Positions 18,776 to 59,661 of a stretch of 64,000 bases of DNA are shown here, piece by piece. The position numbers and the translations under genes are program-made. Position 1 is the first letter of the stretch. The number at the start of each line of letters is the position of its first letter. Below the pieces are notes generated by a model. That model ran no database searches. It saw nothing but the letters and a program-made list of their open reading frames with translations, and was not told where the DNA came from. Source of the DNA: a phage. The stretch lies in the NCBI GenBank assembly GCA_020381345.1, contig GCA_020381345.1_3636.1. One strand, 5' to 3'.

Positions 18776-19044
18776 ACACTGGGCTCCTTAAATGAATCTA
18801 TGTAATCAATTAAATCCCAAGCATCCCTATGACCTGTCAGAGGGTATACTTCTCCAAGAGGGATCATAGCAATAAGTCTATCAAAAACCCAATCTGGACG
18901 CAACATTTTATGGTGATACTCCCACTCACCTTCTACAGACTTTTTCTGAGTGATCAGGATCTCTGTGTAGTGTTTCGCCTGTCTTGAGTAGATTGAGAAT
19001 GACTTGTACATAAATGGCCCCCTCTTGTTGAAAACAAAATACAC
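18772..19044 (-). CDS. hypothetical protein (90 aa)
   Basis: ORF track. Confidence 0.45.
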   Translation of the reverse strand: MYFVFNKRGPFMYKSFSIYSRQAKHYTEILITQKKSVEGEWEYHHKMLRPDWVFDRLIAMIPLGEVYPLTGHRDAWDLIDYIDSFKEPSV

Positions 19045-19046
19045 TA

Positions 19047-19361
19047 CTACCAGGTCACTGTCAAGTAGGCAACTGTGTTATTTTTCTCCGGAGAGATGCC
19101 AACAACATCCACCTGCAGACCTCCTGCCCTCAAATCCCCAACAATGTGTGGGAAGTAGTCTGAGAGATGCGAGGGTAGATTTATCGAAAATCCGCATCCC
19201 AGAAAGCCTGCTAACGCTTTATTTTGTATCTCCCCTACAATCGCATCATAAATGGAGTTAAGCTCGTCAGGGAGCGTTACAGGACGTTTTAGCGCTAACT
19301 GGTGTAATTTGTCCTTAGCACTCATTTTCATTTCAGGTCTACCTCTGGTGGTGCCAACCAC
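19047..19361 (-). CDS. hypothetical protein (104 aa)
   Basis: ORF track. Confidence 0.5.
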   Translation of the reverse strand: MVGTTRGRPEMKMSAKDKLHQLALKRPVTLPDELNSIYDAIVGEIQNKALAGFLGCGFSINLPSHLSDYFPHIVGDLRAGGLQVDVVGISPEKNNTVAYLTVTW

Positions 19362-19861
19362 ATAAATGGCGGCAAGCCTAAACGGTTTTTCTTATCCCAC
19401 ACAAAATATGCATATGCTTGCCCGTCAGTTCTGCCATTTGATTGAAATGACGGACGCTTAGATATTGTGATCACAGTGGTAGGTGCATTATCAAGCCACC
19501 ATTCAAATCTGGCTTTGCTTTCCAGAAAATTAAGACGTAAAAGCATAATAACTACGTCAGCATCTTTCAACGCCTTGTCTACAAACTCACGAGCTAAGCT
19601 GTATGGTGGGTTGGTGATAATACAGTCAACATGGTTGTATTCTGTATTCAGATAGTCAACACCTTCTTGGATTTCTCCCCATGCAGATCCTAACGGCATA
19701 CGGGAGTAGAACACACCTGAGGCACTATTCCTGCAAGGCTCTAAGTAGGTCCAGTCTTCTGGGAACGGAATAAGGTCATACAGCCCTTCTGCACACCACT
19801 CCGGTGTCACATACTCATCGTAGGCGTTACGTTGTTCATCAGGTTTTCTAGCACAAGTCAT
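19328..19861 (-). CDS. DNA methyltransferase (N6-adenine or N4-cytosine type, 177 aa)
   Basis: Catalytic motif IV CIITNPPYS in translation; no adjacent restriction gene. Confidence 0.65.
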   Translation of the reverse strand: MTCARKPDEQRNAYDEYVTPEWCAEGLYDLIPFPEDWTYLEPCRNSASGVFYSRMPLGSAWGEIQEGVDYLNTEYNHVDCIITNPPYSLAREFVDKALKDADVVIMLLRLNFLESKARFEWWLDNAPTTVITISKRPSFQSNGRTDGQAYAYFVWDKKNRLGLPPFMWLAPPEVDLK

Positions 19862-19912
19862 GCAAATCTCCAGATCATAAAAGCCCTCCGAAGAGGGCTT
19901 TAGAATTAATGT

Positions 19913-20962
19913 TTAAACTTCTTCGACAATTCCTGCACCCAGGATTTTTTCATTGAGCTCTTTTGCTGTTTTAATAATATTATCTACCAGACGCTTGCGA
20001 GTCTTATCTTTCACCTTAACCTCTTCACCGCCGTTCAGAGTAGTCTTCAATTGAGACAGAATATCCTGAAGTTCAACGACAGAGAATCTCTGCAGATCTT
20101 CTGAAGTAATCTCACCCAGGGCAATTCGGACGGTCTCGCCACTTTCCATCTGCAGATTCAGGAACACAGTGTGAACATCACCTTTCGAACCACCCGCTTT
20201 TGCAGATTCAACAGCATGAACTAACTCATCTAAAGATGTGCACTGGTGAATCTCCGGAAGACCTGCTTCACCTAACACGCCTTCTTCATCACCTTTTGCC
20301 AGAAGCTTTTTCGGTTTTTGTCCGTTCTGGATGCGTTGTATGTTGCCTTCATCCAGAATAATAGCTCCAGTGCGTGCTGCCAGCTCTTCTCCGTCCAACC
20401 ACACTTCGCCGCCAGCTGTGATGGATGCGATCTCATCTTCTGTCAGCACCCCACCGTAGTATTTTTCGATTAAGCGTTCGAAACGTTTTTTCCAGTAGCT
20501 GACCTGAGTATTCATGTTCACACCGTTACCATAAGTGCCACCTTGGTAGTAGTGGAACATAAACTCTGTGTCCGGAGCCACAGTGCGTTCTTTGCAACCC
20601 AGCCATAAGATTGTTCCCGCAGAGCAGCACATCCCTTCAGCATGTGCAACAACGCTTGCCTGAGACTCGCGGAATGCCTGCAGATAAGCCATTGCAATGT
20701 GCACGCAACCCCCAGGACTATTGATGATCACCCGAATGCTTTCTTCCGGCTGAGCCATACGGATCGTCTGCAGACGAGACATATGATCTTGTAAGTCTTC
20801 CAAATCGTCGATATAAAGAACGTGGTCAACAACTGGTGTTGGGTAGCTGTATGTTTCCATAATACCACCCGGCATACCGAACATTTTATTACTCATAGGT
20901 TCGAAACCGTTCTGTTTTTCTTTCATGCCGTGTACCATGGTGCTACGAGGTGTTAAATTCAT
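19913..20962 (-). CDS. ClpP-family serine peptidase with C-terminal extension (349 aa)
   Basis: INSPGG motif and MCCSAG serine region typical of ClpP/S14-S49 peptidases; followed by hairpin AAAGCCCTC-TTCG-GAGGGCTTT. Confidence 0.65.
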   Translation of the reverse strand: MNLTPRSTMVHGMKEKQNGFEPMSNKMFGMPGGIMETYSYPTPVVDHVLYIDDLEDLQDHMSRLQTIRMAQPEESIRVIINSPGGCVHIAMAYLQAFRESQASVVAHAEGMCCSAGTILWLGCKERTVAPDTEFMFHYYQGGTYGNGVNMNTQVSYWKKRFERLIEKYYGGVLTEDEIASITAGGEVWLDGEELAARTGAIILDEGNIQRIQNGQKPKKLLAKGDEEGVLGEAGLPEIHQCTSLDELVHAVESAKAGGSKGDVHTVFLNLQMESGETVRIALGEITSEDLQRFSVVELQDILSQLKTTLNGGEEVKVKDKTRKRLVDNIIKTAKELNEKILGAGIVEEV

Positions 20963-21022
20963 GAGAAATCCTTAATATTGGAAGTTGAAAGCTATTTATT
21001 TAAACCTGATTCACATTTACCT

Positions 21023-21334
21023 TTATTTAGCAATCACTATAGAGTACTTACGATTGTCAGAAGCATCGCAGCTCAATGATTGCCAGTCTACCACATACCA
21101 CGTATCATTGTCAACAATCACTTTATCGCCTGTTCTGTAGCAGGTGCTGCTTTCAATAATCCGAGACTCGATAAAGAATCTGTGTCGGCGCTCACGTAGC
21201 AACGCTAAGTTGATTATATTGCCACCACTGTCCTTGATCCATACATTCTTGGATCCTTTATATGCCAGAATTGTCTCGCCGTTATAGACAAACAGGCAGT
21301 ATATTTTATTTAGTTTCTCTTGTATTGTGGCCAT
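21023..21334 (-). CDS. hypothetical protein (103 aa)
   Basis: ORF track. Confidence 0.5.
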   Translation of the reverse strand: MATIQEKLNKIYCLFVYNGETILAYKGSKNVWIKDSGGNIINLALLRERRHRFFIESRIIESSTCYRTGDKVIVDNDTWYVVDWQSLSCDASDNRKYSIVIAK

Positions 21335-21437
21335 ACTATCTCCTTCTCCTTGTCTTGTCCGATAATAATATCTAAAGCTTACCTGTTTGTCAACAACTGT
21401 TTTAGATATTTAAGGGTGGAATAACCACCCTTCTGTA

Positions 21438-22226
21438 TTACTCGGAAACAGGGGTCCAAATATGATTTGCACGATCCTCTATAAGATTGAGAGCAATCTG
21501 ACGACCCAACCCGGAACGAACGACATCGTCTGGACTATCAAAGCTGATCATTCCAACCTCGGGATCTGGATGACGAGTAAAGAAATCCGTCACCCATGCA
21601 AGGCCAGATTTACCAGGGATGTCACGTTGACTATTATCGCCCATAATTACAAGGGTGGCCTGATCAGAGATCCTTGTAATAATTGACAACATTTCTTCAG
21701 GGTTAGTTTGCTGTGCCTCGTCAATCAGGACAAAGCATCGCTCATCGAAACTACGACCACGAATGCTTTCAACTTCACAAATCTCGATACGGCTGTTCTG
21801 ACCATCTCCCAGCATTGCGGCAAAAGCACCTTTGCCAACACGACGACAAATAGTGTCCATCATGCTTCGAAGATAGGGCCACAGTTTTTGCATTGCATTC
21901 CCTGGTTTAAATCCTGAAGTCTTTCCTGTCTGAACGTAAGGACGTGCAACAATGATCTTATCAATCTCGTTCTTACGCAGAAGATCACCTGCATATGCAG
22001 ATGCCATGAATGTCTTACCGGATCCAAACACACCGTTTACAATAATAATCTTACGTGACCCTAGATAATCAAGATACTTTTGCTGCTTCTTATTCATTGG
22101 TCGGAGAGCTGGAGCAGTGTGCTCTCTTTCGTCAGCAAATTTCTCAGCAGCCTTACGCAGGCGATCAGATTTGCGAGCCTCTCTAGCTTCATCACGCATG
22201 CGTTTTGTTTCTTTAGCTCGACCCAT
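21438..22226 (-). CDS. phoH: PhoH-like ATPase (262 aa)
   Basis: Walker A GVFGSGKTF plus LIDEAQ Walker-B-like box. Confidence 0.8.
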   Translation of the reverse strand: MGRAKETKRMRDEAREARKSDRLRKAAEKFADEREHTAPALRPMNKKQQKYLDYLGSRKIIIVNGVFGSGKTFMASAYAGDLLRKNEIDKIIVARPYVQTGKTSGFKPGNAMQKLWPYLRSMMDTICRRVGKGAFAAMLGDGQNSRIEICEVESIRGRSFDERCFVLIDEAQQTNPEEMLSIITRISDQATLVIMGDNSQRDIPGKSGLAWVTDFFTRHPDPEVGMISFDSPDDVVRSGLGRQIALNLIEDRANHIWTPVSE

Positions 22227-22264
22227 GTTGGGACTCCTTTCAGATTGAGATGTGCCAAGTACTT

Positions 22265-22615
22265 TTACTGCAACAGTTTTTCAATAGCCGCTTCCATGCT
22301 GCTTGCAACAGCCTGAACTCGGATATTCATCTCTTCTTGGTGGATCAGCTCCTTAAGCTCTTTAACGGTAAATTCTTTAGAGAAACCTTCCACCATGATC
22401 TTGTGCAAGGCTTCTTGCGTGTCCACTTGCAAGAACTTTTCCAGTTTGTTGGCAGAGGCTTCTAAATCAGCCCGAATACGAGGGTCATCTGTGCGATTCA
22501 GCATTAGACGTAAGCCATCAAGATTAGTAGAAATAGCATCTGCATGTTGAGTAACTAACCGTGGCAAAATGAGATCTACAAACTTATTAGCCAAATCGAT
22601 ACGTTCTTGTGTCAC
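22265..22615 (-). CDS. hypothetical protein (116 aa)
   Basis: ORF track; GTG start overlapping upstream small ORF stop. Confidence 0.5.
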   Translation of the reverse strand: MTQERIDLANKFVDLILPRLVTQHADAISTNLDGLRLMLNRTDDPRIRADLEASANKLEKFLQVDTQEALHKIMVEGFSKEFTVKELKELIHQEEMNIRVQAVASSMEAAIEKLLQ

Positions 22616-23261: not shown

Positions 23262-23426
23262 AGATACTCCGCATCACATTTAGGGCAATGCCAAATAAAA
23301 TCGTCCAGTGCCTTGCACCAACGAAGATTGCAACGACAACCACACTTGCAAATTTTATAAATACCTTTAGACATATTGTACCTCCTTAGTTTATAGCATG
23401 TTTAAGATATGTGTATCTTTCTACGA

Positions 23427-24446
23427 TCATTTACCACAGATCTCTTTGTATGCTGCTTCCACTATGCTAAACACTTCAGGTCTGTAGTGAAAGAATTCAG
23501 TGCTTCCACTAAATGCTTTAGAGAAGTTTATTTTATACTTATTGAAGGCTTCATGCACAGATTTTTCTACACTCAGTATGTTTTCAGTCGATCCGCCCCA
23601 TGTTTTTACTATGTGGAGATCATAAATACCTGCACCAGCCTTCTTGGATGCTCTTAATATCCTTCCCTTCCTCGCTTCTACATTGACGCTCACACCGATC
23701 TTCATAAGTGTTGGCGCTTCTAAGTTATCAACCATGAGGTAAAGCTTCCCATAGTTGTGAGATAAGAAACCGTTTTTGGCACATTTAGGGCATCCACGAC
23801 CAGACAGGTGGCAAGAAGGTGTCTGGGTGAAGTGATTTCCACAAGTGTTGCAGATTATCTCTACCTTATCTTCGCAAGTCATATAATCTATAAAAGAGTA
23901 GTCATATTTATCGCCATGGATTTCTTTGGCTCTTTCTATGAATTCAGGGCCTTTATTCCTTTTTGCTGCGCTAATGAGTTTACTACACTCAGGGCACCCT
24001 TGGCCTTTCAAATGGTTAGATGGGGATTGCAAGAACACTCCGTGCTCAGGGCATACAATTTTTACAGGAGTTTTATAGTTAACATATCCAACCTTAGAAT
24101 AATCATAGGTGTCACCGTGGATTTTTACAAATTTTTTGATAATATCACTAGAATCGTTTCTAAGCTTATTGCCTACTGGCACTCTACCACACTTAGGACA
24201 CCCACTACCGTCAAGGGTATGATGTCCAGCGATCTGCGTAAACTCACCATGAACAGGGCATACAATTACAACCTTACTTTTAGCAGTTTTATATACGGTT
24301 TTTGAATAGTCATATTTATCGCCATGTACTTCTCTAGCTCTTTTTGTAAATTCTTCAGTCGTAAGTTGTTTTCCTCTAGGCATCTTTGATCCCTCTTGGT
24401 TCTCATAGATTAGCCAAGTATGCCACATCCTTGTGGCTTCTGTCAA
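23427..24446 (-). CDS. free-standing endonuclease-like protein with three zinc-ribbon repeats and GIY-YIG-like C-terminal domain
   Basis: Three ~50-aa repeats HGDKYDYS..CPxHGxF..GxGCPKC; C-terminal GKLYLMVDN..MKIGVSVNVEARKGR; inserted between nrdD and nrdG; likely start at internal MPRGK. Confidence 0.55.
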   Translation of the reverse strand: MTEATRMWHTWLIYENQEGSKMPRGKQLTTEEFTKRAREVHGDKYDYSKTVYKTAKSKVVIVCPVHGEFTQIAGHHTLDGSGCPKCGRVPVGNKLRNDSSDIIKKFVKIHGDTYDYSKVGYVNYKTPVKIVCPEHGVFLQSPSNHLKGQGCPECSKLISAAKRNKGPEFIERAKEIHGDKYDYSFIDYMTCEDKVEIICNTCGNHFTQTPSCHLSGRGCPKCAKNGFLSHNYGKLYLMVDNLEAPTLMKIGVSVNVEARKGRILRASKKAGAGIYDLHIVKTWGGSTENILSVEKSVHEAFNKYKINFSKAFSGSTEFFHYRPEVFSIVEAAYKEICGK

Positions 24447-41800: not shown

Positions 41801-43084
41801 TCATTCCAGAACCTCCCAAGTGTATGGGTTAACATTTCGGACGCAGATACCGACAGGGAATTGGTAGTTGTTGTCTTCTGTCCTTGCTTGATATTTGAAG
41901 GTGACAAACTTGCCGATCATTTCCTGCATCCTGTCATAGCTACGCTCCTCGTGCGTGCCTTTCATCTTCATTTTAACAACAACACCTTCCTTGTCAACAC
42001 AGATAAGAACACCTTCATCATTCTTATCTTTCTCAACGTCAATAACTTTCACCTCTGCGTCGTTGAACTTTTTCCATTTCAATGCTTCAGATGTTCGCTG
42101 ACCATACTCATATTTACCACAGAAGTTACGCATAATGGTACCTTCATATCCCTCAGACATAAATATACCAACAGACTCTTCGCACCGATCAACTGTGTAT
42201 GCAAGCTCTGCATCAACAACCTTAATATGATCAAGCATCAAAGAAGCAATAGCACCATTTGCCTCCATAAGATCCTTACAGCGTCCAGACTCTGTTTCAG
42301 GATCCCACCACACCTTGTCGCTAGGAATATCAAAAATGTGATACTCCAGATCGTAGCTACAGTACCCACCGTAACGCAAATCATCACGAACAGGCTCAAC
42401 ATCGACAGGAATATCTACCTTGTTGAAGTTTTTGTATGTTGATAAGCCTGCCTTAATTGCGGCATGACGGCGTTTTTTATCTGCCTCATAGTCTTTATCG
42501 ATCTCGGCCTGAATCTCTTCCTGTGTGCGCCACCGTTTAGCAAGAGACACTATTTTCTGCAAAGGAAGACCATGAATGTAGAGTTCCCCATCAAGTTGTT
42601 TAATCCCAGTGGTAGAATGGAAAGAACGAAGTTGCTCTAAAAGATTTCCTTGAATAGGGTAGGACTTATTACCACGGGAAATAAATTTAGGCTCACCATT
42701 TTGGAAAACAACAAGCAGACGAAGGCCATCTAACTTACGCAAGATCCAGCAAGGTAGTTTAAGTGCCTTGCCACGCTTCAGGTAGTCATGCACCAGCATG
42801 GGTAAAAGGTCAACACCCTGCTCGCAATCTTCCATGTTTTCAACATACCCCAGACGGACTTGTTTTTCCCACTTGCTGATAGCCTCAAGCTCGGCCTGTT
42901 GCTCAGCTGTAGTCTCGTTGGCACGACCTACGTTCTTAGGTGTGCATACCGTCTCTTTGTACTGCAATTTACCGTCAAGCTTGCCAAACTCTACGATAAC
43001 CTTTTCGCCATCTGTAAATACTTTCCATTGCTGGTAACTTCCATCCTTATTCAGTGCATAAAGTGTTGTTTTGATTTGATGCAT
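41801..43084 (-). CDS. ATP-dependent DNA ligase (427 aa)
   Basis: Adenylation motif I KLDGLR. Confidence 0.7.
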   Translation of the reverse strand: MHQIKTTLYALNKDGSYQQWKVFTDGEKVIVEFGKLDGKLQYKETVCTPKNVGRANETTAEQQAELEAISKWEKQVRLGYVENMEDCEQGVDLLPMLVHDYLKRGKALKLPCWILRKLDGLRLLVVFQNGEPKFISRGNKSYPIQGNLLEQLRSFHSTTGIKQLDGELYIHGLPLQKIVSLAKRWRTQEEIQAEIDKDYEADKKRRHAAIKAGLSTYKNFNKVDIPVDVEPVRDDLRYGGYCSYDLEYHIFDIPSDKVWWDPETESGRCKDLMEANGAIASLMLDHIKVVDAELAYTVDRCEESVGIFMSEGYEGTIMRNFCGKYEYGQRTSEALKWKKFNDAEVKVIDVEKDKNDEGVLICVDKEGVVVKMKMKGTHEERSYDRMQEMIGKFVTFKYQARTEDNNYQFPVGICVRNVNPYTWEVLE

Positions 43085-55171: not shown

Positions 55172-56728
55172 GTGTCCAAAAAGAACCGCAGGAAACACAA
55201 CGCCACAGCCAAAACTGTGAATAAATCTGGGAACGCAGGCGCACCAACTCATAATGTTCGTATGAGTGAGATCGGTTCTGGCGCACTTTCCCAAATTATG
55301 GCAGAGTCGCAATCTATGATGGTTGAGGAATTGCGTTGGCCTCAGCTGATTGCTACAGTGGAGACTATGAAATGTGATTCCACAGTTGCTACTGCCTTAG
55401 ATACAAAATATGTTTTCATCACGAAAGCATTTAATGATTTTAAGATCCTTTATAATGTTAAAAGTGAAGACTCTAAGAAAGCTGCCGAGCTTATAGAGTA
55501 TTCTTTGCGTAATTTGGCAAACCAACAAACTCTTCGAGATATTGCAAGAAGCGCAGCTACCTTTAACGAGTATGGTTTTTCACTGTTTGAGAAAGTATAC
55601 CGCAGAGAGAGAGAAGGTAAATATGCCGGGATGCTTCTTATTGATAAAATTGCATTCCGACCTCAGGCCAGCCTGTCCAGATCAGAGCCGTTTGTTTTTG
55701 ATAAGAATAGCAGAACACTGACAGGTATTTATCAGTCACCTAATGCATTTCTAAACACTCAGAATGCACGCTGGGCTGGACCTCTTGCTGCAATGCCTTC
55801 AAAAGGCTTTAATGAGCCTGAAATTTTCATCCCTGCTAAAAAGCTTATGCTCATGACCCTGTCAGGAACAGAATCTAACCCTGCAGGTGTGTCACCTATG
55901 ATAGGTTGCTACAGATCTTTCCGTGAGAAAGTTCTGATTGAAAACCTTGAGGTTGTTGGCTGTTCCAAAGACCTTGGTGGCGTGCTTGAGCTGAAAATTC
56001 CTTCCAATATTTTGAACAAGGCCAGCATTGACCCGAATTCAATGGAAGGGAGAATGGTTGCAGACCTTATGCTTGACGCAGCAAACGCCCATAGTGGTGA
56101 GCAAAGTTTCTTTATACTTCCGTCTGATAGAGATAAGTCTGGTAAAGAGCTTTACTCCATGACCCTGAAGGGGGTTGACGGTATGGGTAAGCAGTATTCC
56201 ACTAAAGATTTGATTGATGCCCGTAAGAAGGCGATTCTTGACCGTTTCGGTGCTGGCTTTATTAACCTCGGTAACGATAACGTTGGATCCTTCTCTCTGT
56301 CTGAGTCAAAACAGTCTATCCATGGTCATTTTGTTCAGCGTGATATAGATATTATCACTGAGGCCTTCAATAAAGATCTTATTCCACAGCTTCTGGCATT
56401 GAATGGTATCATCCTTGAAGATGATGATATGCCTAAACTGAAACCTGGTCTGATTGAAGAAGTGGACATGGAGAGCTTCTCCAAGTTTGTCCAGAGGATC
56501 GGTGCTGTAGGTTACTTGCCAAAAACTCCTGCAGTAATTAATAAGATTCTTGAAGTAGGCGGGTTTGATGAAAGATTTGACGAGGACATGGATCAGGAAG
56601 AGCTGATGAAGCTCTTGGGCCAGGACATCAGTAGAGCTGGTGATGGAATGGCTGCAGGATCCACTGGTAACGGCACTTCTAAGATGTCATCAACCAGAGA
56701 TAATTCCATATCCAACATGGAAAATTAA
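55172..56728 (+). CDS. putative portal protein (518 aa)
   Basis: Large ORF directly after terL, GTG start with RBS GAGGGG; call by position and size only. Confidence 0.55.
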   Translation: MSKKNRRKHNATAKTVNKSGNAGAPTHNVRMSEIGSGALSQIMAESQSMMVEELRWPQLIATVETMKCDSTVATALDTKYVFITKAFNDFKILYNVKSEDSKKAAELIEYSLRNLANQQTLRDIARSAATFNEYGFSLFEKVYRREREGKYAGMLLIDKIAFRPQASLSRSEPFVFDKNSRTLTGIYQSPNAFLNTQNARWAGPLAAMPSKGFNEPEIFIPAKKLMLMTLSGTESNPAGVSPMIGCYRSFREKVLIENLEVVGCSKDLGGVLELKIPSNILNKASIDPNSMEGRMVADLMLDAANAHSGEQSFFILPSDRDKSGKELYSMTLKGVDGMGKQYSTKDLIDARKKAILDRFGAGFINLGNDNVGSFSLSESKQSIHGHFVQRDIDIITEAFNKDLIPQLLALNGIILEDDDMPKLKPGLIEEVDMESFSKFVQRIGAVGYLPKTPAVINKILEVGGFDERFDEDMDQEELMKLLGQDISRAGDGMAAGSTGNGTSKMSSTRDNSISNMEN

Positions 56729-56783
56729 AAATTATCAACACAGGGGGTTGCAAAACCTCCTTTGGCGTGATAAAATAATCCAC

Positions 56784-57215
56784 ATGGGGAATAAGATGCC
56801 ACAGGAAGAAATGATTTCCTACGAAATCATCTACGAACCTGACACTAAAGATGCTCACGGTGAGTGGATGAGTAAAGACACCATCAAAAAGGCTAAAGAT
56901 AACTGGGACGCAGCATACGCCGCAGGCCTAGTTTCTGAGAACCTTTTCCACTTGACCTCTACAGATGCTTTCACCATTGAAAAGACGTGGATTCAAGAAG
57001 AGTTTGATGTTGTAGTGATTGGCACTGAGCAGGTCATCAAGGCTGGCTCTTGGGTTGCTAAAGTTAAATACAATAATCCTGAATTATGGGAAGCTAAGAA
57101 GGCTGGCATTGTTGGTGGCCTAAGCATTCAGGCAACAGGTAATGTTGATGAAGAAACTGGTGAAATTACCAACGTAAACTTCGGGATCAGTGTTGTAGAA
57201 GAGGGCAATGAATAA
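56784..57215 (+). CDS. hypothetical head morphogenesis protein (about 143 aa)
   Basis: Between portal and scaffold-like gene; track start overlaps portal, so internal ATG used. Confidence 0.4.
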   Translation: MGNKMPQEEMISYEIIYEPDTKDAHGEWMSKDTIKKAKDNWDAAYAAGLVSENLFHLTSTDAFTIEKTWIQEEFDVVVIGTEQVIKAGSWVAKVKYNNPELWEAKKAGIVGGLSIQATGNVDEETGEITNVNFGISVVEEGNE

Positions 57216-58192
57216 TGTCTGAAAAAACGATTACTATTAAAGAGAAGGGGATTGCCCTGTGCCATAAGGCGCAAGGCTATAGCGCTAACAACAGACCTGT
57301 ATCTCTTTTGATGAAGAGTGATCTTAAGCCTGAGCAGTTAACAGACGATATTGTTAAGGCACTTCGCCAAGTTACTGTGGAGCTTAGTTTTGAAGAATAC
57401 CTGCGTCGTTTCTTCGATATGTGGTATGATGATGCTAAAGCACTTGCACACATGCTTGGTTTTGAGATTGAAGAAGAGGCTTGGGCTAAAGAGCACCCCG
57501 ATTGGGAATGGGCGCAAGCTGACGCAGAGTCTTGTATTGCATGGCTGGAAGAGCGTTGTGATAACGTGACCATTCATAAGGCTGCAAAAGAAGGCAAGCA
57601 GCTTAGTGTGGTAGATCAGTACAGCCTGTTAAAAACACAACAGATTTTTGAACAAGTAACCGCTGATCTCTTCGATAAAGAAGGGAACCTGATCAAGGCG
57701 GTACAGGAACCTGCTGAGGTGGATAAAACTACCGAGGTGGATGATGTTGCAAAATCCGCAAATACCGAGGAGAATCCGGTGGACGTAACCAAAACTAAAG
57801 AGTATCTGGATCTGCTGAAGCAAGTAGAAGAGCTGAAAGCAACCCAGAGTAAAGCTGAAGAAATCATCAAGGCCCAGGTTGAAGTTGAAAAAGCTAAAAT
57901 GCTGACTAAGGCTCAAGCTTTAAGCTTTGTTGGTGAAGAAGATCACGCAACCCTGGTTGACTTCATGCTGGAAAAAGCTAACGAACCTATCGTAGCTATG
58001 CTGGAGAAAGCTCAAGCAAAAATTGAAGAGCTGGAAGCAGAGGTGCATAAAACTAAAGAAGAGTTTGCCACCACTGAACATGGTAATGATGGCGAACCTG
58101 TTGTGGATGATATTGCAAAATCCGCAGAAGAAATTCTTGCTGAAAACGTTGCAAAAGCACTTGCTCGTGCACGTGCAGAATCTAACAAATAA
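57215..58192 (+). CDS. putative scaffolding protein (325 aa)
   Basis: Acidic, coiled-coil-rich C-terminal half; sits before decoration and capsid genes. Confidence 0.5.
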   Translation: MSEKTITIKEKGIALCHKAQGYSANNRPVSLLMKSDLKPEQLTDDIVKALRQVTVELSFEEYLRRFFDMWYDDAKALAHMLGFEIEEEAWAKEHPDWEWAQADAESCIAWLEERCDNVTIHKAAKEGKQLSVVDQYSLLKTQQIFEQVTADLFDKEGNLIKAVQEPAEVDKTTEVDDVAKSANTEENPVDVTKTKEYLDLLKQVEELKATQSKAEEIIKAQVEVEKAKMLTKAQALSFVGEEDHATLVDFMLEKANEPIVAMLEKAQAKIEELEAEVHKTKEEFATTEHGNDGEPVVDDIAKSAEEILAENVAKALARARAESNK

Positions 58193-58212
58193 TACATTAA
58201 CGGGGGAAATAA

Positions 58213-58602
58213 ATGATTACCGCTCAATATTCTGATATCGTGCTCGGCAAAGTTGATTCTAGCGATGCTGGCTACAATTTTAAAGAGATGGAAATTACAC
58301 TGACAGAGCACCACCATGCTGGTACTGTTGTAACAAAAACTGGCACTATCGCTAACGATGATGGCTCAGACGTTTATGGTGTTCTTGTAGACCGAGCTTT
58401 GGTAAAAGATGCAGGAAAAGTTCATCTTGCTGAGCCTCTGCAAACAGGTCAGAAATATAAACTGGTTGTTGCAGTTCACGGTGTTACCTTTGCAAAAGAT
58501 AAGCTGCTGGGGTCTAACGGTGAAGCAGCTAAGCAGGCTGTTCTTGAAAAGCTGGAAGCTCTGGGTAACAAAGTTCACGTCCAGACTCTTGGTGAAGAGT
58601 AA
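58213..58602 (+). CDS. putative head decoration protein (129 aa)
   Basis: Small ORF directly before the capsid gene; call by position. Confidence 0.45.
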   Translation: MITAQYSDIVLGKVDSSDAGYNFKEMEITLTEHHHAGTVVTKTGTIANDDGSDVYGVLVDRALVKDAGKVHLAEPLQTGQKYKLVVAVHGVTFAKDKLLGSNGEAAKQAVLEKLEALGNKVHVQTLGEE

Positions 58603-58650
58603 GTCCTAAATTGTTCGGGAAAATATTTAAGTTTTACTTTGGAGAAATAA

Positions 58651-59661
58651 ATGATTACTCGTAAAGATGAATTTGGCATTGTTGATTTAGGTGCTACTCT
58701 GGACCTTGTTCCACGTCAATTCCGCCTGATTACTGGTATGGATCTGTTCGAAACCCGTCTCGGCACCTCAACAATTGCTCAGATTGAGCGTGTTGATGAA
58801 GTTGTAACCGACATTCCGGCACGCCGTCGTGGTGGTGAGCGTAACTACGTTGGTAGTGAACGTGCTCAGGTTAAAAACCTGAACATCCCGTTCTTCCCTC
58901 TGGACAAAGGCATCACCGCAGCAGATGTTCAGAACTTCCGTCGTTACTTCACCCCTGATGCTCCGAAAACTGTTCAGGACGTAGTAACCCGCGTTGTTCG
59001 CCGTATCCGTGTTTCTCATGAAGCACTGCGTGAGAAAGCGCTGTTCCAGGCTATTCTGGGCAAATCCTATGCACCTGGTGACACCACCTGTCAGTATGAC
59101 TACTACACTCTGTGGGGTGTGTCTCAGAAATCTGTTGAAATTGACCCTGCAAAAGCAGATCAGGATCCTATGGAGGTTCTGGAAGAAGCTCGTCTGCACA
59201 TCGCGCTGCAAGCTGGCGATAACGCAGCTGGCTACCGTATCGTGGCTCTGTGCTCTCCTGAGTTCTTCAGTGCAATCACTCACCACCCGCTGGTAGAACT
59301 GGCATACACCTACTACGGCTCTGCTCAGGAACCTCTGCGTCGCCGTCTGGGTGCTGGCGGTCAAGACAGCGTATACCGTGTGTTTGAGCATAAAGGTATC
59401 ACCTTTATCGAAGATATCTCTGGCAATATTCCTAAGAAAGAAGCTCGCATTCTGCCGATGGGTATTGATCAGATGTTCCAGCTGCACTTTGCTCCGGCAG
59501 ACGATGTTAACGAAGCAAACACTCCAGCACAGGAACTGTATATGTGGTATAAACACTCTGCATACCTGCGTGAAGAGAAGATTGAATCTGAAACTTCCAT
59601 GCTGGCAGTTAACACCCGTCCAGAGCTGGTTGTTAAAGCAACTCTGAAAGGTGGTGAATAA
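58651..59661 (+). CDS. putative major capsid protein (336 aa)
   Basis: Position in head module, RBS GGAG, and a very strong terminator immediately downstream. Confidence 0.6.
   Translation: MITRKDEFGIVDLGATLDLVPRQFRLITGMDLFETRLGTSTIAQIERVDEVVTDIPARRRGGERNYVGSERAQVKNLNIPFFPLDKGITAADVQNFRRYFTPDAPKTVQDVVTRVVRRIRVSHEALREKALFQAILGKSYAPGDTTCQYDYYTLWGVSQKSVEIDPAKADQDPMEVLEEARLHIALQAGDNAAGYRIVALCSPEFFSAITHHPLVELAYTYYGSAQEPLRRRLGAGGQDSVYRVFEHKGITFIEDISGNIPKKEARILPMGIDQMFQLHFAPADDVNEANTPAQELYMWYKHSAYLREEKIESETSMLAVNTRPELVVKATLKGGE

Follow-up and report, generated by a model that had tools for sequence, protein, structure and literature searches.

A ClpP-fold peptidase of phage rV5, encoded apart from the head genes and altered at the unfoldase docking pocket, is probably an accessory enzyme

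Cellular ClpP, such as that of Escherichia coli (MEROPS S14), has a hydrophobic pocket for the IGF/IGL loops, where ClpX and ClpA dock, and the pocket residues have been listed (bioRxiv 10.1101/820209). The C-terminal strand of ClpP forms part of this pocket, so the C-terminus lies on the docking face (bioRxiv 10.1101/820209). In Listeria monocytogenes ClpP1, the third residue of the catalytic triad is Asn172 and AAA+ docking sites are missing. Alone, this protein is an inactive heptamer; it is activated on a ClpP2 ring, in a hetero-tetradecamer (PMC9257651). Phages encode unfoldase-independent ClpP-fold enzymes of their own, the ClpP-related head-maturation proteases (NF045542; phrog_1684, phrog_94, phrog_2976, and phrog_133). 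In addition, many large lytic phages appear to carry accessory members of the fold, in a long form (PHROG 5410) and a short form (PHROG 1827). Short forms, of about 190-250 aa, include the core of ICP1 gp211 and proteins of Pakpunavirus, Flaumdravirus KIL1, KVP40-type, and marine T4-like phages. In ICP1, gp211 is classed as 'Middle-late', as are PhoH and NrdB, and the capsid genes gp122-126, including the protease gp125, are late (PMC7567579).

Here, we describe a long form encoded in a window of 64,000 nucleotides, this being the whole stretch of phage DNA analysed (GenBank assembly GCA_020381345.1, contig GCA_020381345.1_3636.1). The gene and its immediate surroundings comprise the following features.

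19877..19900, minus strand: GC-rich hairpin AAGCCCTC-TTCG-GAGGGCTT then TTTTAT, read from the sequence, right after the stop codon of the ClpP-like gene
19913..20962, minus strand: ClpP-like serine peptidase CDS (rV5 gp117 / ORF122), 349 aa
21023..21334, minus strand: ORF121, 103 aa, predicted co-transcribed gene upstream of the ClpP-like gene
21365..21393, minus strand: sigma70-type promoter-like site TTGACA-17-TATTAT, upstream of ORF121 and the ClpP-like gene (consensus scan, 11/12)
21438..22226, minus strand: PhoH-like P-loop ATPase (Pfam PhoH, E 3.6e-47)

The ClpP-like ORF starts with ATG, preceded by an AAGGA ribosome-binding site, and its product has 100% amino acid identity to the rV5 'ClpP ATP-dependent protease subunit' (gp117/ORF122). 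The gene is already known, having been annotated as ClpP since deposition of the rV5 genome. Note that GenBank, RefSeq, and PHROG all use the label 'ATP-dependent Clp protease subunit'. In the rV5 paper, the gene appears only in the annotation table (PMC3606486), and we found no functional study of the protein, or a close relative, in published work on rV5, ICP1, Vequintavirinae, and phage ClpP homologues. A CRISPRi-ART study of the rV5-like phage EdH4 targeted capsid and rII genes only. The rV5 group is not among the phages covered by a phage Tn-seq preprint.

An earlier note, made from the letters alone, took the INSPGG and serine motifs to indicate a ClpP-like protease. This is borne out by profile searches. 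The INSPGG motif spans residues 80-85 and is followed by CCS114AG; Pfam CLP_protease (PF00574) matches residues 59-168 with 47.7 bits, above the cutoff of 20.2 (E 2.1e-12). The match to phrog_5410 ('ATP-dependent protease') is full-length, with residues 24-345 aligned to positions 4-322 of the 323 in the profile (E 4.9e-155). When an AF2 monomer model was compared with the PDB, using Foldseek, the best 50 matches were all ClpP (E about 1e-10, target-normalised TM 0.65-0.77, or ~0.7, and 17-23% identity). The note had also asked whether profiles would favour S14 or S49. Peptidase_S49 gave no match at E<=1 in the Pfam profile search, SppA_dom scored 14.4 bits against a cutoff of 155, and the general-base position is an invariant His, not the S49 Ser-Lys dyad. 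We conclude that the ORF encodes an S14/ClpP fold, rather than S49 (the SppA and phage lambda C type).

Every NCBIfam ClpP model scores well under its cutoff. The TIGR00493 clpP equivalog reaches 33.2 bits (cutoff 308.6) and the best PRK ClpP model 39.2 bits (cutoff 228). Scores are higher with head-maturation models, the best curated models beyond the protein's own PHROG, than with models for cellular ClpP (about 39 bits). Of these, phrog_1684 gives 79 bits and NF045542 gives 60.4 bits, the latter below its cutoff of 120. Given these scores, head proteases may be ancestral to the accessory family. Beyond the long forms themselves, the nearest relatives are the short forms (phrog_1827), at about 140-155 bits. 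Among these, ICP1 gp211 is distant, with 36% identity over the core and a different extension. None of the PADLOC defence-system models match the ClpP-like protein.

The protein can be divided as follows.

20831..20962, minus strand: N-terminal 44 residues, predicted disordered (pLDDT about 45 for residues 1-40)
20327..20830, minus strand: ClpP-fold catalytic core, residues 45-212 (pLDDT >90)
20621-20623, minus strand: Ser114 codon, aligning with E. coli ClpP S97
20552-20554, minus strand: His137 codon, aligning with E. coli ClpP H122
20405-20407, minus strand: Glu186 codon, at the position of E. coli ClpP Asp171 (D171)
20234..20326, minus strand: linker, residues 213-243, predicted disordered (low pLDDT at 226-237; variable, gapped alignment columns)
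19928..20233, minus strand: C-terminal alpha/beta domain, residues 244-345 (helix, beta-hairpin, three helices)

The core has much in common with cellular ClpP: the fold, the INSPGG motif, the Ser and His positions, and the distance between INSPGG and Ser, which align without gaps. The model also keeps the handle region, made up of a Gly-rich loop and a long helix (147-169). In an alignment of relatives, Ser114 and His137 are invariant (68/68 sequences), as are the INSPGG oxyanion-hole glycine and many residues surrounding the active site, at identities down to 26%. The third triad position is different. Unlike cellular ClpP, the rV5 protein has Glu186 in place of Asp171 and Gly185 in place of Arg170 (R170), so the canonical triad Asp is absent. 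Across the 68 sequences, position 186 is E in 4, Q in 34, and D in 30. Besides rV5, three close relatives have Glu; Gln occurs in 33-34 long-form sequences (33/37 in one count), and Asp only in short forms, which keep the canonical K/R-Asp pair. Glu186 may replace Asp functionally and, in principle, complete the triad. The earlier note would have been refuted by a triad that is absent on alignment; this is not the outcome, as Ser and His are invariant and the third residue is Glu. In pairing a non-Asp third residue with lost docking sites (see below), the long-form family resembles Listeria ClpP1. The latter differs in that it has no C-terminal domain and works with a ClpP2 partner ring, and the rV5 protein has Glu. 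Note that the Gln of most long-form relatives is comparable to the Asn172 that accompanies inactivity of Listeria ClpP1 in isolation (PMC9257651).

The docking pocket also departs from cellular ClpP. In an alignment of sequences that is gap-free and robust from INSPGG to the catalytic His, and weaker for L23, L189, and R192, six of the eight confidently mapped pocket residues of E. coli ClpP are charged, polar, or small in the phage protein (Y60>R77, F82>E99, I90>H107, M92>E109, F112>T127, and L114>A129). Only Y62>I and L189>L remain hydrophobic, and two further pocket residues, L48 and F49, fall within a four-residue deletion. The substitutions hold across the family, including short forms. 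Because six of the eight residues are replaced, the 'ATP-dependent' label is unsupported. The N-terminus is also unrelated; its 44 residues bear the family motifs N25-x-F-G and YSYP, and have no similarity to, or reliable alignment with, the axial loops of E. coli ClpP, though some other gate may be present. Since the once hydrophobic IGF/IGL pocket is now charged or polar, and the axial loops are unrelated, docking of host ClpX or ClpA would not be expected.

The long C-terminal extension described in the earlier note is real. In the AF2 monomer model, the ClpP core stops near residue 212, leaving about 137 residues that have no counterpart in cellular ClpP. Structure prediction, as the note had advised, divides these into a disordered linker and a ~100-aa alpha/beta domain. 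The linker differs in sequence and length among relatives; the domain is acidic (pI about 5) and conserved within the family. We detected no relatives of the domain beyond the long-form family. A fold search of BFVD gave one significant match, apparently a family member. When the domain was used by itself as a profile query against 5.8 billion proteins, there were zero matches, but this was uninformative, as family members were missed too. Short forms are without this domain or, like ICP1 gp211, have unrelated extensions. When the extension and N-terminus were compared with a seven-sequence database (including the scaffold, XkdF protease, capsid, portal, PhoH, and ORF121), there was only noise (best E 0.28). 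Given where the C-terminus of ClpP lies, the 137-aa extension would probably occupy the docking face.

We turned to the context of the gene. The promoter-like site matches P121, annotated in NC_011041, though only as a match to the consensus. The hairpin, which was missed by a simple scan, is likely an intrinsic terminator ending a two-gene unit of ORF121 and the ClpP-like gene. ORF121 has a homologue at six of the seven long-form loci, and matches nothing in Pfam or PADLOC. Neighbours of the unit are PhoH, ribonucleotide-reductase (NrdG), methyltransferase, and replication genes. Because the unit lies among such genes, we infer cytoplasmic expression before or alongside DNA synthesis, not with the head proteins. 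The setting recurs elsewhere. At 80 viral loci, the neighbours of ClpP-like genes include Rad50/Mre11-like proteins, peptide deformylase, an AAA_5 ATPase, and ribonucleotide reductase, with 0 structural genes. Short forms share this non-structural context of replication and nucleotide metabolism, often with PhoH just upstream. PhoH recurs upstream of ClpP-like genes in unrelated phages. Single-linkage clustering at 50% identity, used to count independent lineages for this linkage, merged everything into two clusters and was uninformative. Two other recurrent neighbours are possible partners but probably bystanders or unassigned. One of them (cluster 22), located between PhoH and short ClpP forms, encodes a PD-(D/E)XK nuclease; the other (cluster 120) matches nothing in Pfam.

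The head genes are found elsewhere in the window, in a module at 55172..59661.

55172-56728, plus strand: portal
56640..57215, plus strand: XkdF-type (Peptidase_S78_2) prohead protease candidate (Pfam E 1.1e-17, 64.6 bits against a cutoff of 24)
57215-58192, plus strand: probable scaffold
58213-58602, plus strand: decoration
58651-59661, plus strand: major capsid protein, detected by virion mass spectrometry (PMC3606486)

The earlier note placed the ClpP-like gene about 35 kb from the capsid module, and this agrees with the distances to the portal gene at 55172 (34 kb) and to that of the major capsid protein at 58651 (38 kb), both on the opposite strand. The same note saw no obvious protease among the head genes. 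Here it was mistaken, since a gene with a Peptidase_S78_2 match lies between those for portal and scaffold. In its product, conservation begins near residue 52, and H73, H104, and S162 are invariant among relatives. Annotations in related phages (BASEL phages, ICP1) name the gene 'prohead protease' or 'capsid protease', and it is present on six of the seven contigs with the long ClpP form. RefSeq and PHROG 1530 mislabel it as 'DNA methyltransferase'. With this candidate occupying the head cluster, the ClpP-like protein is probably not a missing capsid protease. Prohead proteases usually leave the capsid and absence from virions is weak evidence. With that in mind, ORF122 is not among the 19 proteins found by mass spectrometry of rV5 virions (PMC3606486). 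The earlier note had also suggested looking for processed capsid N-termini; in the same published data, capsid peptides start at residue 5 and the N-terminus is intact (PMC3606486).

We favour, with a probability of roughly 0.6, the following reading. The ClpP-like protein is an accessory, non-structural, cytoplasmic peptidase of S14 fold that probably acts without an unfoldase, and a separate enzyme serves head maturation. Host RNA polymerase would transcribe ORF121 and the ClpP-like gene as a two-gene unit, from its own sigma70-type promoter. The product, presumably a ring, would cut peptides or proteins by means of Ser114 and His137, with Glu186 replacing Asp. The flexible linker and C-terminal domain would most likely form a built-in module for binding substrates or partners, or for gating. 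Head maturation would be left to the XkdF-type protease of the portal-protease-scaffold-capsid operon. A protease aimed at host proteins, one of two roles proposed in the earlier note, is compatible with all of our observations.

The other proposed role, a displaced or second prohead protease, fares less well. Here, the C-terminal domain would bring gp117 into procapsids, where it would digest scaffold or internal proteins. In its favour, head-maturation models outscore those for cellular ClpP, and unfoldase docking sites are missing from head proteases as they are from gp117. Prohead proteases such as that of HK97 also reportedly have C-terminal targeting regions. However, the protease slot of the head operon is taken by an XkdF-type enzyme with conserved His, His, and Ser, NF045542 stays at 60 bits, and the gene belongs to a sigma70-driven unit, on the opposite strand, among DNA-metabolism genes. 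Likewise, the homologue in ICP1 belongs to the middle-late rather than the late class, the extension is unlike scaffold, capsid, or portal proteins, and the capsid N-terminus is unprocessed. Furthermore, short-form relatives occur in T4-like contexts, and T4-like phages have gp21 as a core gene. We consider this role unlikely. It is similarly doubtful that gp117 is a true ATP-dependent Clp subunit, supplied by the phage as a proteolytic core for host ClpX or ClpA so that ATP-dependent proteolysis in the host is redirected. The fold, the catalytic Ser and His, and the database labels speak for this, as does modest induction of host clpA and clpS during ICP1 infection (Table S1, PMC7567579). Against it stand the altered and partly deleted pocket, the unrelated and disordered N-terminal loop region, NCBIfam ClpP scores far under their cutoffs, and an extension that would probably cover the docking face.

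By analogy with Listeria ClpP1, gp117 heptamers might instead stack on host ClpP, or bind Clp components, changing specificity or activity or acting as a decoy. The combination of Gln (Glu in rV5), R170>G185, and lost docking sites in long forms fits such a partner, loss of the triad Asp and docking sites having also been described for ClpP1 (PMC9257651), and the handle region is kept. Even so, the protein shares just 17-23% identity with structures of cellular ClpP, and the K/R-D pair of short forms would confine the idea to the long subfamily; we rate it as improbable. Least credible is a ClpP-fold protein with little or no catalytic activity that serves a purpose other than proteolysis, such as chaperoning, assisting in assembly, or acting as a scaffold on which the C-terminal domain is held. 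Long forms do not conserve the triad Asp and the conserved C-terminal domain could bear the function, but invariance of Ser114, His137, the INSPGG glycine, and the active-site surroundings is hard to explain without catalysis. Returning to an accessory peptidase, a bolder version has little probability in our view. In this, the long form would be a phage-specific proteolytic machine, freed from host ClpX and ClpA, in which a ClpP-fold ring uses its C-terminal domain as a built-in receptor for substrates and works with the recurrently linked PhoH-type ATPase, or stacked on host ClpP like ClpP1, to remodel the host proteome in mid-infection. If true, such a machine would, for example, remove host factors or defence proteins, or recycle amino acids.

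For the rV5 group, our analysis argues against two misleading ideas, namely that the ClpP-like protein is the capsid protease and that it is an obvious partner for host ClpX or ClpA. The annotation of the head-protease candidate, labelled as a methyltransferase, is also corrected. More broadly, few 'auxiliary' genes are as widespread in large lytic phages as those for ClpP-like and PhoH proteins. Testable features of this family are the exchange of the triad Asp for Glu or Gln, the loss of the docking pocket, the C-terminal domain, and the linkage to PhoH.

The ClpP-like gene at 19913-20962 (minus strand) starts with ATG, has AAGGA ahead of it, and encodes 349 residues. At 100% identity, the protein matches rV5 gp117/ORF122, which carries the annotation "ClpP ATP-dependent protease subunit". 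The annotation table of the rV5 genome paper uses the same ClpP label, without discussion in the text (PMC3606486). By sequence comparison, positions 19000-22300 share 99.8% identity with Escherichia phage V5/rV5 (DQ832317 / NC_011041), the plus strand of the window being the minus strand of that record. Since identity across the whole window is about 97-98%, with several indels, we take its source to be a very close Vequintavirus relative, distinct from the deposited rV5 sequence. One insertion relative to the rV5 reference, of about 1 kb (23391-24415), lies between nrdG and nrdD and resembles a mobile, homing-endonuclease-type element. Its ORF (23427-24446, minus strand) encodes a 339-residue protein in which a module of about 55 residues (HGDKYDYS...CPxHG...GxGCPxC) occurs three times in tandem. 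A second insertion is at about 41863-43056. Note that 19000-22300 also matches some 19 GenBank records that lack annotation and bear the name 'Campylobacter phage' (MG0656xx series, host given as Campylobacter jejuni; database matches H6, H7, H17, H18, H27-H29). These are 97-99% identical to rV5-like coliphages, which suggests mislabelled or contaminating coliphage genomes.

The ClpP-like ORF has exactly the coordinates given in the earlier note, and the motifs reported there are present: INSPGG at residues 80-85 and the nucleophile, S114, within CCSAG. The Pfam CLP_protease match scores 47.7 bits, above the gathering score of 20.2. The family is S14 rather than S49; no S49 model matched (SppA_dom, 14 bits against a cutoff of 155). 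Relatives with solved structures, ranked by sequence, are all ClpP at the top. AlphaFold2 modelling from 68 homologues (mean pLDDT 83.6) gave a confident ClpP fold for residues 46-212, and all 50 top Foldseek matches to this core were ClpP (target-normalised TM 0.65-0.77; identity 17-23%). The N-terminus (1-44) is disordered. The long C-terminal extension is also borne out by the model, in which a disordered linker (about 213-243) leads to an α/β domain that folds separately (244-345).

Among 68 aligned sequences (26-69% identity), the catalytic residues S114 and H137 are invariant. On ClpP of E. coli MG1655 they map to S97 and H122, and the spacing from INSPGG to the serine is gap-free. At the Asp171 position, rV5 has Glu186, as do three close relatives; another 33-34 long forms (those with the C-terminal domain, PHROG 5410) have Gln, and short relatives (about 200 residues, PHROG 1827) have Asp. 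The adjacent Arg170 position is occupied by Gly throughout the long forms and by Lys or Arg in the short ones. Hence, the refuting condition named in the earlier note, an absent triad, does not apply to this protein, since Ser and His are invariant, yet Glu186 at the Asp171 position makes the triad non-canonical.

In ClpAP cryo-EM structures, the ClpA IGL loop occupies a pocket formed by L48, F49, A52 and F82 of one ClpP subunit and L23, Y60, Y62, I90, M92, F112, L114 and L189 of the next (bioRxiv 10.1101/820209). The equivalent positions are listed here.

E. coli ClpP docking pocket residues and their gp117 counterparts
L48, F49: lost in a four-residue deletion in gp117
Y60: R77; Arg in every long form, Lys/Arg in the short ones
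Y62: I79; still hydrophobic in long forms
F82: E99; Glu in every long form and in most of the short ones
I90: H107; His in every long form, Ser in the short ones
M92: E109; Glu in 68 of 68 sequences
F112: T127; long forms have Thr, short forms Glu
L114: A129; long forms have Ser/Ala, short forms Thr/Ser
L189: L203; still hydrophobic in long forms

Alignment to E. coli ClpP and the model gave no gp117 counterpart of the ClpP N-terminal loop region. Every NCBIfam ClpP model scored far below its cutoff. Because most mapped pocket residues are replaced, no counterpart of the loops was found and these cutoffs are missed, we conclude that the common label "ATP-dependent protease subunit" has fold-level homology as its sole basis.

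Among long forms, the linker varies in length and sequence and the terminal domain is conserved, with F293, E297, L298, R322 and L325 near-invariant. A dedicated model of the extension (pLDDT 78.9) contains a helix, a β-hairpin and three helices. A Pfam search with the extension found no significant family, and a BFVD structure search returned one significant match, a 303-residue protein that is apparently a family member. About a dozen relatives of intermediate length also have the hairpin-plus-helix half. ICP1 gp211 (326 residues; locus L003, 3432-4412), with the canonical Asp kept in its core (KDFWM), has a strongly acidic 140-residue C-terminal extension of no detectable relationship to that of rV5. 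Extensions are thus a variable feature of the family, and seem to have been gained more than once.

The earlier note raised the possibility of a displaced prohead protease. The head genes are indeed distant, with the portal 34 kb and the capsid 38 kb from the ClpP-like gene.

Head module
55172-56728, plus strand, portal (Portal_Mu / phrog_113)
56640-57215, plus strand, candidate XkdF-type protease ORF, 191 residues (Pfam Peptidase_S78_2)
57215-58192, plus strand, probable scaffold gp62, 325 residues, acidic
58213-58602, plus strand, decoration protein
58651-59661, plus strand, major capsid protein, 336 residues

The module was thought to have no obvious protease. This is incorrect; the ORF between portal and scaffold matches Peptidase_S78_2, the XkdF-type phage serine protease family (E 1.1e-17; 64.6 bits, cutoff 24). 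It is called "DNA methyltransferase" in RefSeq NC_011041 (rv5_gp063) and PHROG 1530, a label also carried into other genomes, e.g. CR8 and Nernie. Counterparts are "prohead protease" in BASEL rV5-like phages and "capsid protease" in ICP1. His73, His104 and Ser162, invariant among 26 usable relatives, are the putative catalytic residues, and His/His/Ser are the residue types of HK97/herpesvirus-fold proteases. Relatives do not share its first 50 or so annotated residues, whose codons overlap the portal gene, and translation therefore probably begins around Met49 or Met53. The XkdF-type gene occurs on six of seven viral contigs with a long-form gene. Mass spectrometry of rV5 virions detected 19 proteins, including ORF62 at low coverage, but neither ORF122 nor ORF63, the XkdF-type product (PMC3606486). 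Abundant capsid protein peptides start at residue 5, after "MITR" (PMC3606486). Hence, the capsid N-terminus is unprocessed, with no cleaved propeptide and no delta domain. Any head proteolysis would act on the scaffold, with acidic gp62, the probable scaffold, as the likely substrate. The gp117 extension resembles no head-module protein. We consider a prohead protease role for gp117 unlikely. Its family does score higher against ClpP-related head-protease models than against cellular ClpP, which may reflect ancestry.

The genetic context is one of DNA metabolism. A near-consensus σ70 promoter-like site (TTGACA-17-TATTAT; 21393-21365, minus strand), coinciding with a promoter annotated in the rV5 record, precedes ORF121 (103 residues, no known family) and the ClpP-like gene. 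Directly after the stop codon comes a GC-rich hairpin with a T-run. Same-strand neighbours encode PhoH, NrdG, NrdD, ribonucleotide reductase subunits, thymidylate synthase and a methyltransferase. Related contigs, down to 39% ClpP identity, preserve the gene order PhoH, ORF121-like, long ClpP-like, methyltransferase. The linkage to PhoH recurs in unrelated phages. Counted by locus, 14 of the 67 with sufficient flanking sequence have a same-strand PhoH gene no more than 3 kb upstream, whereas 0 of 69 have one downstream. This linkage (window 21438-22226 and 19913-20962, both minus strand; loci L003, L005, L007-L012, L015, L017, L023, L026, L028, L030, L058, L069) may reflect either functional partnership or common membership of a mid-infection module. 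PhoH is likewise upstream in ICP1, Pseudomonas phage KIL1 and Alteromonas phage V22. By RNA-seq, ICP1 gp211 is "Middle-late", as are gp208 (PhoH) and gp204 (NrdB); the late class holds the capsid operon, gp122-126, in which gp125 is the predicted protease (PMC7567579). Across 80 viral contigs, recurrent neighbours of relatives encode Rad50/SbcC-like and Mre11/SbcD-like proteins, peptide deformylase, AAA_5 ATPase and ribonucleotide reductase, and no structural genes were nearby. Separately, a deformylase gene sits about two genes upstream of a short form at 23 of 80 loci (L014-L086), accompanied by genes for Rad50/Mre11-like proteins and an AAA_5 ATPase. Marine T4-like phages may thus have a module for protein processing and turnover.

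The best-supported reading is that gp117 is an accessory cytoplasmic ClpP-fold peptidase, produced alongside DNA-metabolism genes. Host unfoldases are probably not needed for its action, and the C-terminal domain is probably a binding or gating module. A further possibility, by analogy only, is that long forms pair with another ring. Listeria ClpP1 carries Asn at the triad position, lacks chaperone docking and is inactive unless stacked on ClpP2 (PMC9257651).

At 90% identity the long forms fall into about 80 clusters, and at 50% into about seven, on contigs of about 90-150 kb where size is informative. Scores fall sharply from long to short forms, and the wider ClpP-like set has 7,819 representatives (E<=0.001). 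We found no experimental study of any member in the literature. The initial observation is real yet was already annotated, and its key premise, that a head protease is missing, is wrong. We conclude that the gene is an unremarkable member of a widespread family of accessory phage genes whose function is uncharacterised, and that the divergent features of gp117 are modestly interesting leads, not a discovery.
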